A stretch of DNA of 64,000 nucleotides from assembly GCF_055900595.2 (NCBI RefSeq), contig NZ_CM148325.1; one strand, given 5' to 3'. Each line of letters begins with the position of its first letter. Position 1 is the stretch's first letter. The notes beneath the pieces are model-generated. The model made no database searches and had not been told where the DNA came from. It saw only the letters and a list, made by a program, of their open reading frames with translations. Made by a program: the position numbers and the translations under genes. Positions 1,456-11,471 of the stretch are shown here, piece after piece.

Positions 1456-3504
1456 ATGAACATGTTTTTTAGGCTTACCGCGTTAGCTGGCCTGCTTGCA
1501 ATAGCAGGCCAGACCTTCGCTGTAGAAGATATCACGCGTGCTGATCAAATTCCGGTATTAAAGGAAGAGACGCAGCATGCGACGGTGAGTGAGCGCGTAA
1601 CGTCGCGCTTCACCCGTTCTCATTATCGCCAGTTCGACCTCGATCAGGCATTTTCGGCTAAAATCTTTGACCGCTACCTGAATCTGCTCGATTACAGCCA
1701 CAACGTGCTGTTGGCAAGCGATGTTGAACAGTTCGCGAAAAAGAAAACCGAGTTAGGCGATGAACTTCGTTCAGGCAAACTCGACGTTTTCTACGATCTC
1801 TACAATCTGGCGCAAAAGCGCCGTTTTGAACGTTACCAGTACGCTTTGTCGGTACTGGAAAAGCCAATGGATTTTACCGGCAACGACACTTATAACCTTA
1901 ACCGCAGCAAAGCTCCATGGCCGAAAAACGAGGCTGAGTTGAACGCGCTGTGGGACAGTAAAGTCAAATTCGACGAGTTAAGTCTTAAGCTGACAGGAAA
2001 AGCGGATAAAGAAATTCGTGAAACCCTGACTCGCCGCTACAAATTTGCCATTCGTCGTCTGGCGCAAACCAACAGCGAAGATGTTTTCTCGCTGGCAATG
2101 ACGGCGTTTGCTCGTGAAATAGACCCGCATACCAACTATCTTTCCCCGCGTAATACCGAACAGTTCAACACTGAAATGAGTTTGTCGCTGGAAGGTATTG
2201 GCGCAGTGCTGCAAATGGATGATGACTACACCGTTATCAATTCGATGGTGGCAGGTGGCCCGGCAGCGAAGAGTAAAGCTATCAGCGTTGGTGACAAAAT
2301 TGTCGGTGTTGGTCAAACAGGCAAGCCGATGGTTGACGTGATTGGCTGGCGTCTTGATGACGTGGTTGCCTTAATTAAAGGGCCGAAGGGCAGTAAAGTT
2401 CGTCTGGAAATTTTACCTGCTGGTAAAGGGACCAAGACCCGTACTGTAACGTTGACCCGTGAACGTATTCGCCTCGAAGACCGTGCGGTTAAAATGTCGG
2501 TGAAGACCGTCGGTAAAGAGAAAGTTGGCGTGCTGGATATTCCTGGCTTCTATGTGGGGTTGACAGATGATGTCAAAGTACAACTGCAGAAACTGGAAAA
2601 ACAGAATGTCAGCAGTGTGATCATCGACCTGCGTAGCAATGGCGGTGGGGCGTTGACCGAGGCAGTATCGCTTTCAGGCCTGTTTATTCCTGCAGGTCCG
2701 ATTGTTCAGGTTCGTGATAACAACGGTAAAGTTCGTGAAGACAGCGATACCGACGGTCAGGTCTTCTATAAAGGCCCGCTGGTGGTGCTGGTTGACCGCT
2801 TTAGTGCTTCGGCTTCAGAAATCTTTGCTGCGGCAATGCAGGATTACGGTCGTGCGCTGGTTGTGGGTGAACCGACATTTGGTAAAGGCACTGTCCAGCA
2901 GTACCGTTCATTGAACCGTATTTACGATCAGATGTTACGTCCTGAATGGCCAGCTTTGGGTTCTGTTCAATACACGATCCAGAAATTCTATCGCGTTAAC
3001 GGCGGCAGTACGCAACGTAAGGGCGTAACGCCAGACATCATCATGCCGACAGGTAATGAAGAAACGGAAACGGGAGAGAAATTTGAAGATAACGCGCTGC
3101 CGTGGGATAGCATTGATGCTGCAACCTATGTGAAATCAGGCGATTTAACGGCCTTTGAACCGGAGTTGCTGAAGGCGCATAATGCGCGTATCGCGAAAGA
3201 TCCTGAGTTCCAGAACATCATGAAGGATATCGCGCGCTTCAACGCCATGAAGGACAAGCGCAATATCGTTTCTCTGAATTACGCGGTGCGTGAGAAAGAG
3301 AATAATGAAGATGATGCGACGCGTCTGGCGCGTTTGAACGAACGCTTTAAACGCGAAGGTAAACCGGAGTTGAAGAAGCTGGATGATCTACCGAAAGATT
3401 ACCAGGAACCGGATCCTTATCTGGATGAGACGGTGAATATCGCACTCGATTTGGCGAAGCTTGAAAAAGCCAGACCCGCGGAACAACCCGCTCCCGTCAA
3501 GTAA
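1456..3504 (+). CDS. prc: tail-specific periplasmic protease Prc (Tsp)
   Basis: Track ORF 1408..3504 trimmed to ATG at 1456 (MNMFFRLTALAGLLAIAG signal peptide); 682 aa as recalled for Prc. Confidence 0.95.
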   Translation: MNMFFRLTALAGLLAIAGQTFAVEDITRADQIPVLKEETQHATVSERVTSRFTRSHYRQFDLDQAFSAKIFDRYLNLLDYSHNVLLASDVEQFAKKKTELGDELRSGKLDVFYDLYNLAQKRRFERYQYALSVLEKPMDFTGNDTYNLNRSKAPWPKNEAELNALWDSKVKFDELSLKLTGKADKEIRETLTRRYKFAIRRLAQTNSEDVFSLAMTAFAREIDPHTNYLSPRNTEQFNTEMSLSLEGIGAVLQMDDDYTVINSMVAGGPAAKSKAISVGDKIVGVGQTGKPMVDVIGWRLDDVVALIKGPKGSKVRLEILPAGKGTKTRTVTLTRERIRLEDRAVKMSVKTVGKEKVGVLDIPGFYVGLTDDVKVQLQKLEKQNVSSVIIDLRSNGGGALTEAVSLSGLFIPAGPIVQVRDNNGKVREDSDTDGQVFYKGPLVVLVDRFSASASEIFAAAMQDYGRALVVGEPTFGKGTVQQYRSLNRIYDQMLRPEWPALGSVQYTIQKFYRVNGGSTQRKGVTPDIIMPTGNEETETGEKFEDNALPWDSIDAATYVKSGDLTAFEPELLKAHNARIAKDPEFQNIMKDIARFNAMKDKRNIVSLNYAVREKENNEDDATRLARLNERFKREGKPELKKLDDLPKDYQEPDPYLDETVNIALDLAKLEKARPAEQPAPVK

Positions 3505-8011: not shown

Positions 8012-8680
8012 TCCTTCCTCAATCTTGAGTAACCCCGTCGTTGAAGGGTTACTCAATTCATCCTGATTATACGCACTGTCATGGTGCAACTGCTTCAAAT
8101 TAAAACTCTGGTCTGACTTCAAATAATTATCATATTATTTATTTGCGTAACGGGATATCAGAAAAAGATATTTAGCCCATTAATTTATTAGGATGTTTAC
8201 ATCGGATTTGTGATTAAGCGTGGTATTATTTATTAGCGAAACGTTTCTCTCTTGATTTTTTTGCGCATTCATCAATTTTTCTTATTTTAAATTTACAATA
8301 CCTTTGGCGATTGACTTCTCTTTGGGGTGATTGATAGCCGTTAACTGACTGTTTTATGAGAAAAAGTGATATAACTTTTTATTCATTGCATAGCAGAAAA
8401 TGTGATATTGCACGCACTATGTAATAACTTCTCCCATTGGCCTGGAACAACTGAACTTATTGAACTATGTTAGAAAATACGTCAGTTTAAGTATCTGCCT
8501 GAACTGGCAAGGTTAAGCACAATGATATATCGGCGCGTATTCCGTTGCATAAGTGTGCAAAAAAAGTGGAAGACGTATCGAGATTTGTGCGTCTGATCGA
8601 GACATGTTTAAAAATGGCTTGCCATAATTAACGTTGTATGTGATAACAGATTTCGGGTTAAACGAGGTACAGTTCTGTTT

Positions 8681-8824
8681 ATGTGTGGCATTTTCAGTAA
8701 AGAAGTCCTGAGTAAACACGTTGACGTTGAATACCGCTTCTCTGCCGAGCCTTATATTGGTGCCTCATGCAGTAATGTGTCAGTTTTATCTATGTTATGC
8801 CTGCGGGCGAAGAAAACAATCTAA
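8681..8824 (+). CDS. yobF: small protein YobF (47 aa)
   Basis: Translated by hand: [47 protein letters not shown]; immediately upstream of cspC; absent from track (under 60 aa). Confidence 0.85.
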
Positions 8825-8836
8825 GGAATTTTTCAA

Positions 8837-9046
8837 ATGGCAAAGATTAAAGGTCAGGTTAAGTGGTTCAACGAGTCTAAAGGTTTTGGCTTCATCACTC
8901 CGGCTGATGGCAGCAAAGACGTGTTCGTACACTTCTCCGCTATCCAGGGTAATGGCTTCAAAACTCTGGCTGAAGGTCAGAACGTTGAGTTCGAAATTCA
9001 GGACGGCCAGAAAGGTCCGGCAGCTGTTAACGTAACAGCTATCTGA
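8837..9046 (+). CDS. cspC: cold-shock-domain protein CspC
   Basis: 69-aa [40 protein letters not shown]..., canonical CSD RNP motifs. Confidence 0.97.
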
Positions 9047-9091
9047 TCGAATCCACTGATCTGAAGTGTGAAGACACTTCAATCTCGCTAT

Positions 9092-9118
9092 AAAGCCTCG
9101 TCGAATGCGAGGCTTTTT
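9092..9118 (+). terminator. intrinsic terminator downstream of cspC
   Basis: stem aaagcctcg / cgaggcttt followed by a 5-T run. Confidence 0.8.
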
Positions 9119-9211
9119 ACTTTGCTTTATCTTCGCTCCTGGCATTCGGATATTTGCCCGCCGCGTGATTCGCGTTACACTTGCGGACTTTAGTATCCTG
9201 CCGGAGTTGTC

Positions 9212-10021
9212 ATGTCGTTTTCCTGTCCACTTTGCCATCAGCCTCTCTCGCGTGAAAAAAACAGCTATATCTGTCCCCAGCGACATCAGTTTGATATGGC
9301 GAAAGAAGGGTATGTCAACCTGTTGCCTGTTCAGCATAAACGATCTCGTGATCCGGGCGACAGCGCGGAAATGATGCAAGCACGACGCGCATTCTTAGAT
9401 GCCGGACATTATCAGCCGCTGCGTGATGCAATTGTTGCCCAACTGCGGGAACAGCTTGATGAAACGGCCACGGCGGTGCTGGATATCGGCTGTGGTGAAG
9501 GGTATTACACACACGCATTTGCCGATGCGTTGCCCGAAATCACCACGTTTGGTCTGGATGTCTCGAAGGTGGCGATCAAAGCTGCGGCAAAACGCTATCC
9601 GCAGGTCACTTTTTGTGTCGCTTCCAGTCACCGTTTGCCGTTTGCCGATGCCAGCATGAACGCCATTATTCGCATCTATGCGCCGTGTAAAGCAGAAGAA
9701 TTAGCGCGCGTAGTGAAGCCCGGCGGTTGGATCATTACAGCTACGCCGGGACCGCGACATTTGATGGAGCTGAAGGGGCTGATTTACAATGAAGTACATC
9801 TTCATGCACCTCATGCAGAACAACTGGAAGGTTTTACATTACAGCAGAGTGATGAGTTGTGTTATCCGATGCGTCTTCGCGGTGACGAAGCCGTCGCGTT
9901 ATTGCAGATGACGCCGTTTGCCTGGCGAGCGAAGCCAGAAGTCTGGCAAACGCTGGCAGCAAAAGAAGTGTTTGACTGCCAGACGGACTTTAATATTCAC
10001 CTCTGGCAGCGTTCTTATTAA
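9212..10021 (+). CDS. rlmA: 23S rRNA (guanine745-N1)-methyltransferase RlmA
   Basis: 269-aa [31 protein letters not shown]... (zinc-ribbon N-terminus, SAM-MTase fold motif DIGCGEGYY). Confidence 0.95.
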
Positions 10022-10584
10022 CCGTGGAAGTGCGTCCAGAGGATCTGGACGCCGATGCCGATCAGTACCAGCCCGCCGAGAATTTCCGCTTTCTTCCCAA
10101 TAATTGAGCCGATAAAGCGACCAACCATCATCCCTAATGTCGACATAATCAAGGTTGCACAACCAATGGCTAATGCGGTCGCGATAATGTTGACCTGCAG
10201 GAAGGCCAGACCAACCCCCACAGCCATCGCATCCAGGCTGGTGGCAATCGCGGTGGTTACCAGTAGCCAGAAACCGTGTCGACGGCGCGGTTCTTCATCT
10301 TCATCATCTGCACCACGAAAACCCTCGATAATCATTCGCCCACCGAGGAATATCAGCAGCACAAACGCAATCCAGTGATTCCATTCAAGGACAAACCGGC
10401 TGGCTAACATGCCCATTCCCCAGCCGATCAGCGGCGTCAGGGTTTCGACGGCACCAAAAATAAGGCCAGTTCGCAAAGCTTCAGAAAATTTCGGTTTATG
10501 GAGGGTGGCACCTTTACCGATTGATGCAGCAAATGCATCCATCGACATACCAAACGCAAGAAGAACAGTAGCAGTGATATTCAT
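10018..10584 (-). CDS. mntP: manganese efflux pump MntP
   Basis: Track ORF 10018..10638 trimmed to ATG at 10584 ([21 protein letters not shown]...), AGGA Shine-Dalgarno 10 nt upstream; 188 aa. Confidence 0.9.
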
Positions 10585-10699
10585 GACAACGTCCTGACCG
10601 GGGTATCCATAAAACACATCATCGCCCCCAGCAAACATGCATACATGAACAACAAACCGCGATGATTTTCGCGTTCATGCAGGCATAGCGATTGATGTG

Positions 10700-10805
10700 C
10701 ATATGGTCTCGCCTGACTGAAAGTGTTCAGTTCGTACGTGCCACGTTTTGCAACGAGTATGTTGACACGTACATTTCCGGAATCTGGAAATCGGCTACTC
10801 CCCAA
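10700..10805 (-). promoter_or_regulatory. yybP-ykoY family Mn(II) riboswitch aptamer in mntP 5' leader
   Basis: Minus-strand leader carries conserved GGGGAGUAGCC ... GUCAACAUAC ... CAGGCGAGACC blocks typical of the yybP-ykoY motif, upstream of mntP. Confidence 0.7.
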
Positions 10806-11012
10806 ATGAGGGCGCAACATTAACATATTTTTAGAATATAAAACAACTGTTGGGATATATTATTTCAGCAGTTAATTGATAACGATTTTCATTTAGATTT
10901 ATATATCAATGAAACGTTAAAATAAATAACAAATAAGGGATGGGATAATATAGCCTAAGCTATGTCTGATTATTTAAAATACAGCAAACATAGCTTTGGC
11001 TAAATTCATAAC

Positions 11013-11471
11013 TTATTGAGTGGAAACAAGAAGTTTATAAATTTTCTCCAGGTCGTCGATATTTCGAACGCGGATTAACAGCCGGCGCTGTTCTAATTGC
11101 ATCACTAACACGCCATCTTCAGACAAGTTCATCGCTTTAATTCGACTATATTCAATCCAGACATTGGCGAAGAAAAAACCTTTTTGTTTAAAGATGATCT
11201 TCGGAACGCGGATCCAGAAAATATAAAACCCCATTAGAGCCAGTGCACTTAATAACCATGTCGTTATTTGCGCGCCATGATTCGTGACGTTGTTATAGAT
11301 AAGAATGACAATCAGTCCTACGAAGATAACGCTGTCGATGCGGCCACGTCGGAGCAAAGGAATTGCCAGCAGGGTGGGGCCGTTGCGGCGGGGCATGATG
11401 AACTGATCGTAGATCGCGAAGGTCAGGAGTGCGGCGATAAAAAGAATCAGTACCAGGTCCGTGATTGTCAT
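11013..11471 (-). CDS. yobD: UPF0266 membrane protein YobD
   Basis: 152-aa [27 protein letters not shown]..., multi-TM. Confidence 0.85.

Follow-up and report, generated by a model that had tools for sequence, protein, structure and literature searches.

Convergent gene pairs that overlap by a few bases are well described in bacteria, and each pairs two genuine genes that lie on opposite strands and have bases in common between their stop codons; in E. coli, 75 overlapping convergent gene pairs were counted (Huvet and Stumpf 2014, PMC4161906). At the level of transcript ends, Rho-dependent transcripts were reported to have precise steady-state ends just past stable stem-loops without U tracts, with the stem-loops protecting the RNA against PNPase and RNase II and with rut sites located just downstream (Dar and Sorek 2018, PMC6061677). 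Two further systems lie close to these: the suppression of antisense transcription by Rho (Peters et al. 2012, as presented by Adams et al. 2021), which in that presentation concerns spurious transcripts from internal promoters, and the bidirectional terminators (Ju et al. 2019; the preprint of Wang et al. 2022, 10.1101/2022.10.23.513370), which are Rho-independent, lie between genes and use one shared hairpin.

The convergent ends of rlmA and mntP were analysed in a window of 64,000 nucleotides, which is the whole stretch of DNA under study (NCBI RefSeq assembly GCF_055900595.2, contig NZ_CM148325.1). The pair belongs to two of the well-described kinds, the short convergent overlaps and the hairpin-capped Rho-dependent 3' ends, and since about 75 convergent pairs overlap in E. 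coli, the arrangement is an ordinary one. The preferred reading, to which a probability of about 0.68 was given, is that of an ordinary ancient overlap in which the rlmA transcript would be terminated by Rho and trimmed back to a hairpin encoded within mntP (H1), with the mirror arrangement at a hairpin encoded within rlmA (H2) for the mntP transcript.

Gene identities and shared stop codons

The two genes and the bases shared by their stops were located as follows:

Positions 9212..10021, plus strand: rlmA coding sequence (CDS), 23S rRNA m1G745 methyltransferase, 269 aa (ORF, NF008300, PDB 1P91, annotation in K-12 and N96).
Positions 10018..10584, minus strand: mntP CDS, Mn2+ exporter, 188 aa from the ATG at 10584 (ORF, NF008546, RefSeq annotation).
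Positions 10018..10021, no strand assigned: palindromic TTAA holding both stops, with the central TA required by both genes (sequence; overlap of the same geometry in 65 of 82 loci).

Direct reading of the window gave the letters t10018, t10019, a10020 and a10021 at the junction. According to the ORF list, the plus-strand ORF (9212..10021, 269 aa) terminates in CAG CGT TCT TAT TAA, with its stop at 10019-10021, and the minus-strand ORF terminates in CAC GGT TAA, with the mntP stop at 10020..10018. Positions 10019-10020 are common to both stops, and the two coding sequences overlap by 4 bases, stops counted. A second in-frame TAA (10017..10015) lies directly behind the first stop of mntP (tandem stop), and past its stop the rlmA frame, antisense to mntP, contains no further stop for 118 codons.

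RlmA matched the NCBIfam equivalog NF008300, 23S rRNA (guanine745-N1)-methyltransferase, with a score of 474 bits that covers residues 1-268 of 269, and the chain of the E. coli RlmA crystal structure (PDB 1P91) across 1-269 of 269, while MntP read from the ATG at 10584 matched the equivalog NF008546 across 1-188 of 188. These end-to-end family and PDB matches ruled out a chance ORF or a wrong stop assignment. The original prediction had named the two genes, their strands and their coordinates, and had placed both stops in a shared TTAA, all of which proved exact on direct reading and by the ORFs and family matches. It had also allowed for a different start or stop on alignment: both stops were upheld, and only the start of mntP shifted, from the longest-ORF start at 10638, which is not used, to the true start at 10584 (MNITAT...), with the stop unaffected.

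The identical 4-base overlap was found in the RefSeq annotation of K-12 MG1655 (mntP at 1905688..1906254, plus strand; rlmA at 1906251..1907060, minus strand) and of strain N96, and the K-12 coordinates of the two genes are also printed in the gene table of a 2025 paper. The overlap of the two stop codons is thus already on record in the reference annotation. The query region was found in 5422 of 5426 complete E. coli genomes, and the window was 95-99% identical to E. coli chromosomes. The overlap is a true convergent gene pair with shared stops, and not a strain-specific mutation or a sequencing error.

Conservation of the overlap

For comparison, the 80 closest loci from other Enterobacteriaceae species were fetched with the MntP protein and were joined by K-12 and N96, giving 82 loci. 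Among these best 80 matches together with K-12 and N96, rlmA was the convergent neighbour of mntP in 82 of 82 loci. The exact overlap of four bases was present in 65 of the 82, in Escherichia, Citrobacter, Salmonella, Enterobacter, Kosakonia, Trabulsiella, Kluyvera and others. The remaining loci differed: Klebsiella, Raoultella and allies had a 3-base spacer instead of an overlap (10 of 82 loci), the rlmA stop was lost in 2 of 82, resulting in a 48-base overlap, and 5 other loci of the 82 had spacers of 0 to 16 bases.

The four-base solutions for a convergent overlap are limited to TTAA, CTAA, TTAG and CTAG, and all four were seen at this locus across species. Read on the mntP strand, the 65 loci with the four-base overlap carried TTAA (54), CTAA (7), TTAG (3) and CTAG (1). 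The two outer bases of the tetranucleotide, each of which is the third position of the last sense codon of one gene, varied within this class, and the central TA was invariant, because any change there kills both stops. This double lock, in which a change to a central base costs both stops and lengthens RlmA by 118 residues, explains why the overlap persists, and a special function of TTAA is not needed for the explanation. The overlap was unusually stable within the family (65 of 82 loci), whereas Huvet and Stumpf (PMC4161906) stress the rapid turnover of overlaps.

Stem-loops encoded in the two gene ends

An intergenic terminator cannot be accommodated between rlmA and mntP, and therefore the signals for the 3' ends sit in the last codons of the partner gene. 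An inverted repeat was found on each side of the overlap:

Positions 10032..10052, plus strand: H1, GCGUCCAGA-GGA-UCUGGACGC, a perfect inverted repeat with a 9-bp stem and a 3-nt loop, at the end of the mntP CDS and in the rlmA 3' UTR.
Positions 9975..10010, minus strand: H2, GCUGCCAGA...(18-nt loop)...UCUGGCAGU, an inverted repeat with a 9-bp stem, at the end of the rlmA CDS and on the 3' side of mntP.

H1, the arms of which are also printed as GCGTCCAGA GGA TCTGGACGC, begins 11 nt past the rlmA stop; the mntP codons that encode it, G-V-Q-I-L-W-T, precede the mntP stop by five to eleven codons. Folded on the rlmA RNA, H1 had a minimum free energy of -15.7 kcal/mol (z -2.96 against dinucleotide shuffles). 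H2 starts 10 nt past the mntP stop on the mntP RNA, is formed from the rlmA codons C-Q-T ... L-W-Q-R, and gave a minimum free energy of -17.3 kcal/mol on that RNA (z -3.36). A canonical intrinsic terminator shares with H1 the GC-rich hairpin and an RNA 3' end lying a few bases beyond it, and is defined by a U tract right after the hairpin, which both H1 and H2 lack: the sequence downstream of H1 reads CGAUGCCGAUCAG, that adjoining H2 reads UCAAACACUUC, and the terminator scan was blank at 10032-10060 on the plus strand and at 9960-10010 on the minus strand. The scan found no intrinsic terminator at or next to the overlap; its nearest hits were a weak one at 10272-10292 on the plus strand and internal ones at 10349-10322 and 10673-10658 on the minus strand.

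The contribution of the encoded peptides was assessed with a recoding test, in which the peptide of each species was kept fixed, synonymous codons were resampled and the sequences were folded, and a native sequence was counted when it beat at least 95% of its recodings (p<=0.05). For H1 (last 14 mntP codons, rlmA strand), the native median was -14.7 kcal/mol and that of the synonymous recodings -6.9 kcal/mol, and 71-72% of the 83 species, counting the window as one, had a native sequence that exceeded its recodings. Control windows of 14 codons elsewhere in mntP (n=11) gave 0-22% of species in 10 cases and 48% in one. A finer scan of mntP in 24 genera reached its maximum, 71-79%, at the C-terminal window, with lesser antisense peaks of 42-58% (~40-58%, in this 24-species subset) at 10075-10125, 10228-10278 and 10372-10440; H1 is the strongest but not the sole recoding signal in mntP. 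For H2 (last 16 rlmA codons, mntP strand), the native median was -17.2 kcal/mol against -10.0 kcal/mol for recodings, and the native sequence exceeded its recodings in 68-77% of species, compared with 1-16% for nine other rlmA windows. Both hairpins are conserved beyond the amino-acid requirement in about 70% of species, a figure drawn from related species that are not independent, with the compensatory changes tracing to few events.

In the E. coli helix register, pair 32-50 of H1 was U-A in 15 sequences, C-G in 13 and U-G in 8, and pair 34-48 was U-G in 26, C-G in 25 and U-A in 19. From E. coli (GCGUCCAGA/UCUGGACGC) to Enterobacter (GUGCCCAGA/UCUGGGCAC), two double changes were seen, with Val...Thr of MntP replaced by Ala...Ala, and in Kluyvera, Cedecea and Buttiauxella the helix was retained (for example GGCUGU...ACAGCC) despite Trp-to-Tyr and Ala/Val-to-Cys replacements. 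Wobble pairs were unevenly distributed between the strands, with 55 G-U cells on the rlmA strand and 15 on the mntP strand, and a perfect 9-bp helix was present on the rlmA strand only in 17 species and on the mntP strand only in 1. The covarying pairs and the wobble asymmetry of H1 favour the rlmA strand as the acting strand. Pair 40-73 of H2 was C-G in 71 sequences, U-A in 4, U-G in 3 and C-A in 4, with doubly synonymous changes in scattered genera, and its wobble asymmetry pointed to neither strand once the terminal pair was set aside.

The conservation had limits. RNAalifold found no single consensus structure over all 83 sequences, and in a pair count with the register fixed the paired fraction was 80.8%, compared with 78.5% for shuffled sequences, because roughly half of the species fold in a different register, shifted or bulged. 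Klebsiella indica, Huaxiibacter, Silvania and Leclercia had little or no hairpin.

The rlmA 3' end and Rho-dependent termination

Because rlmA and mntP are not separated by a spacer, the transcript of either gene has to end within the other one, as the original prediction had stated. This was confirmed on the rlmA side by published Term-seq data from K-12, in which an rlmA 3' end classed as 'primary, antisense' lies at 1906214 on the minus strand, inside mntP (Adams et al. 2021, PMC7815308, Supplementary file 1), with 48,943 and 40,317 reads in the sheets of two growth conditions. The transcript data come from K-12 and were carried over to the window through the sequence, which is identical base for base from the rlmA stop through 10058 (the relevant 40 nt). 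The register of the sequence printed in PMC7815308 (50 nt upstream, the end, and 10 nt downstream) was verified on the row of the manZ terminator. The positions obtained for the rlmA tail were:

Position 10058, plus strand: homologue of the K-12 rlmA steady-state 3' end (K-12 1906214, minus strand), 37 nt past the stop and 6 nt past H1.
Positions 10053..10150, plus strand: C-rich, G-poor untranslated rlmA read-through RNA, candidate rut region (GC skew; K-12 Rho region).

Ends of this class were numerous in the same table, where 9 of the first 72 K-12 rows are classed as 'primary, antisense' (PMC7815308). The presence of mRNA 3' ends antisense inside a neighbouring gene is common.

A Rho termination region was reported at K-12 1906268 on the minus strand with a Rho score of 10.2 and p 1.3e-31 (PMC7815308, Supplementary file 2), the score being computed over 800-nt windows and the position approximate only. 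With bicyclomycin, the 3'-end reads in the 800 nt downstream on the rlmA strand rose from 22 to 530 in K-12 (PMC7815308). This sensitivity indicates that the rlmA read-through is Rho-dependent in K-12. Detection of antisense RNA had been proposed as a check on the overlap, and the K-12 tail of rlmA antisense to mntP is indeed present and rises with bicyclomycin in the same data. In the window, GC skew on the plus strand was -0.32 at 10050-10149 and negative across most of mntP, so that 10053..10150 was taken as a candidate Rho-loading (rut) region.

The Term-seq authors regard such positions as processed ends rather than termination sites (PMC7815308), and the end at 10058 is most likely the processed, hairpin-protected end of a Rho-terminated transcript and not the termination site itself. 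H1 and the rlmA end fit the protective stem-loop class of Rho-terminated transcripts of Dar and Sorek (PMC6061677): a 3' end past a stable stem-loop free of a U tract and bicyclomycin-sensitive read-through are shared, the C-rich composition downstream is consistent with a rut site, and protection of the rlmA mRNA from exonucleases would follow by analogy with that class. H1 differs in lying wholly inside the CDS of the opposing gene, and therefore evolves under both protein and RNA constraint. The tail is also antisense, untranslated and induced by Rho inhibition, as are the transcripts of Peters et al. 2012 in the presentation of Adams et al. 2021, and differs from the spurious internal-promoter transcripts described there in being the tail of a bona fide mRNA. 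Like the bidirectional terminators of Ju et al. 2019 and Wang et al. 2022, the locus is convergent and has a hairpin-forming stretch covered by both transcripts. Those terminators are Rho-independent, lie between genes and use one shared hairpin, whereas here the rlmA side is Rho-dependent and two hairpins lie within coding sequences; the bicyclomycin sensitivity in K-12 places the rlmA side outside a class defined by Rho independence.

The mntP side and its regulation

H2 is predicted to be the stem-loop capping the 3' end of the mntP mRNA. An end of this transcript inside rlmA is what we infer from the logic of the geometry and from the conserved hairpin. The tables of Adams et al. (PMC7815308) have no entry for a plus-strand 3' end near K-12 1906300 (mntP), which is explained by the very low transcription of mntP in the absence of Mn and by Rho termination in its leader. 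A search of literature text on mntP together with rlmA, Term-seq or antisense found nothing relevant.

Control of mntP by Rho and a riboswitch has been described (PMC11647493). Expression of mntP is barely seen without added Mn, and the mntP leader is itself Rho-terminated (PMC11647493). The riboswitch was located in the window as follows:

Positions 10715..10811, minus strand: Mn2+ (yybP-ykoY) riboswitch of the leader of mntP (Rfam RF00080; at 39.1 bits and E 3e-8 the match falls short of the family's gathering score, 45).

Through the riboswitch, transcription arriving at the overlap from mntP becomes Mn-dependent. Upstream of it, matches to microRNA families at about 10824-11017 were rejected as chance matches in an AT-rich promoter region with palindromes.

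Proposed mechanism and alternative explanations

In the proposed mechanism, the spacer between rlmA and mntP would have shrunk to minus four bases, at which point the TA core of TTAA serves both stops, and the overlap itself would be a frozen, doubly constrained accident. RNA polymerase would continue past the rlmA stop into mntP on the antisense strand, and Rho would terminate this read-through somewhere downstream because the RNA is untranslated and C-rich. Trimming by 3'-to-5' exonucleases back to H1 would then leave the defined rlmA end at about 10058 (+37). The mirror event would be expected for mntP, with read-through into antisense rlmA trimmed back to H2 and an end near 9965-9972. Trimming as the origin of the rlmA end, the rut region and the whole of the mntP 3' end are the parts of this scheme that we infer.

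The hairpins could instead be by-products without RNA function, the overlap being frozen drift of the stops and the inverted repeats accidents of conserved C-terminal peptides (QILW in MntP; CQT and LWQR in RlmA). Conserved residues do force the helix cores, CAGA/UCUG in H1 and GCCAG/CUGGC in H2; RNAalifold gives no consensus; the Klebsiella/Raoultella group lost the overlap (+3 spacer) with no apparent harm; and Huvet and Stumpf argue, with the 75 convergent E. coli pairs among their counts, that overlaps arise and vanish neutrally (PMC4161906). Such a reading is nevertheless unlikely. With the peptides fixed, native codons were about 7 kcal/mol more stable than their recodings in ~70% of species, the excess stability marked these two windows and was absent from most of either gene, doubly compensatory changes occurred that were in part non-synonymous on both arms, and a real and abundant 3' end lies 6 nt past H1. 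Strand evidence bears on a different proposal, in which each hairpin would work chiefly in cis, on its own coding mRNA; H1, for instance, located just before the mntP stop, might slow terminating ribosomes or serve as a back-up exonuclease barrier. As a perfect palindrome, H1 is just as stable when folded on the mntP strand (-17.0 kcal/mol, z -3.43), and its recoding test was positive on that strand in 47% of species. The signal was stronger on the rlmA strand (71%), the G-U intermediates and the strand-only perfect helices leaned the same way (55 against 15, and 17 against 1), the mapped 3' end belongs to the rlmA strand, and ribosomes open a helix inside a translated region, which together leave action in cis with only a slight chance of being the main role.

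Another account would have the region act as an overlapping bidirectional terminator of the collision type, in which the hairpins pause converging polymerases and head-on and trailing collisions release both transcripts without Rho. The pair is convergent and has hairpins placed where the two transcripts would overlap, and an inverted repeat, CCTCTGG/CCAGAGG (10000-10006 / 10036-10042), flanks the TTAA. The class is defined as Rho-independent, however, and read-through on the rlmA strand rises about 10- to >20-fold with bicyclomycin in K-12. The model also predicts better termination for highly expressed pairs (10.1101/2022.10.23.513370), and in media lacking added Mn, in which mntP is poorly transcribed and opposing polymerases are therefore few, the rlmA end is strong; collision is accordingly a very unlikely basis for the rlmA end. 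Less probable still is an excludon-like coupling of the Mn exporter to 23S rRNA m1G745 methylation, in which Mn-induced transcription of mntP lowers the expression of rlmA. If it were true, MntR activation and relief of Rho termination by the riboswitch would send polymerases or RNA into the 3' end of rlmA, the routes would be transcriptional interference or a duplex over the ~90-nt shared region (~9970-10058), and H1 and H2 would set the depth to which each transcript invades the other. The reading of an ordinary ancient overlap with Rho termination and trimming is the one retained.

Implications

The antisense tail of rlmA has a practical consequence, as RNA assays of mntP that are not strand-specific also read this tail, which is up >20-fold under Rho inhibition. 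In one assay published in 2024, RNA of the 'mntP ORF' was up 20-30-fold with bicyclomycin by one-step RT-qPCR with both primers present (PMC11647493), and the strands are therefore indistinguishable in it. This figure may be inflated by the antisense rlmA tail, which rises similarly; the main conclusion of that paper has the support of its reporter fusions and western blots.

In general biological terms the finding carries little weight, the overlap being part of the reference annotation and the 3' end of rlmA part of a published table. It provides a clean worked example of a pair with zero spacer, in which the last codons of each gene double as the putative hairpin capping the mRNA of the other. 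A rarely stressed feature of the pair is that both putative protective hairpins lie wholly inside the CDS of the partner and co-evolve with it, and that the protein sequences themselves co-vary in ways that keep the helix, as in the change of MntP from Ala/Val...Trp to Cys...Tyr.

Reading frames and repeats at the shared stop codons

Past the rlmA stop codon, the reading frame continued for 118 further open codons (10022-10378, +), antisense to mntP, and this extension frame was also seen as a 107-aa ORF at 10055-10378. By contrast, mntP ended with the tandem stops TAATAA (10020-10015). In two related loci from the multi-species comparison, L044 (Huaxiibacter chinensis) and L046 (Lelliottia sp. 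WAP21), the shared site (approximately locus position 3067) no longer held an rlmA stop, and the rlmA ORF extended 48 nt into mntP. H1, the hairpin of the rlmA 3' UTR that is encoded by the last mntP codons (10032-10052), was weak in both (-5.9 and -8.6 kcal/mol for L044 and L046, respectively) and no more stable than synonymous recodings of the same peptide.

At the junction of the H1 loop and 3' arm lay GATC (10042-10045), a Dam methylation site, which was retained by most species within the Gln-Ile codons. Several CTGGCAG/CTGCCAG copies were spread across the last 27 rlmA codons (9934-10013), and many alternative inverted-repeat pairings were therefore found there. A 7-bp repeat, CCTCTGG/CCAGAGG (10000-10006 / 10036-10042), flanked TTAA on both sides, because a Leu-Trp pair with the codons CTC TGG occurs close to the end of both RlmA and MntP.

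Three other segments on the + strand, antisense to mntP (10075-10125, 10228-10278, and 10372-10440), folded more stably than their synonymous recodings; this held for 42-58% of 24 genera. They may be additional structured elements or pause sites, belonging either to the rlmA read-through transcript or to mntP mRNA. Next to the segment 10228-10278 was a weak terminator-like site (10272-10292, +).

Upstream regions of rlmA and mntP

Structured RNA features upstream of the two genes
8662-9121, +, cspA-thermoregulator family RF01766 (136 bits), spanning yobF-cspC
9092-9116, +, strong intrinsic terminator at the end of the yobF-cspC match
10715-10811, -, Mn2+ (yybP-ykoY) riboswitch in the mntP leader (39.1 bits; Rfam gathering score 45)

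The yybP-ykoY riboswitch scored below the gathering score and would therefore be overlooked by default Rfam annotation, though it has been studied experimentally. An inverted repeat of 22 nt (86% complementary) was located at 10947-11006 and contained two palindromic boxes, ATAGC...GCTAT, which precede the mntP start codon by approximately 360-420 bp. The boxes resemble the MntR consensus and are candidate MntR operator sites. Only 95 nt separated the terminator at 9092-9116 from the rlmA start; rlmA therefore requires its own promoter or terminator read-through. The K-12 counterpart of this terminator had 9.2 million reads, among the most abundant Term-seq 3' ends (PMC7815308).

Relation to E. 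coli and to published mntP data

The top E. coli identity over 9000-11000 was only 98.7%, with most genomes at 95-99%, and the nearest MntP locus among the matches listed was 'Escherichia sp. MOD1-EC7003'. From these sequence matches, the source of the window may therefore be an Escherichia lineage that is divergent or cryptic and lies outside mainstream E. coli.

Bicyclomycin induced K-12 'mntP' RNA 20-30-fold by one-step RT-qPCR of the mntP ORF (equivalent to 10018-10584), an assay without strand specificity (PMC11647493). In an independent K-12 dataset, the rlmA antisense tail over mntP gave 22 reads in untreated cells and 530 after bicyclomycin treatment (PMC7815308). The 20-30-fold mntP figure may therefore be partly antisense rlmA signal.
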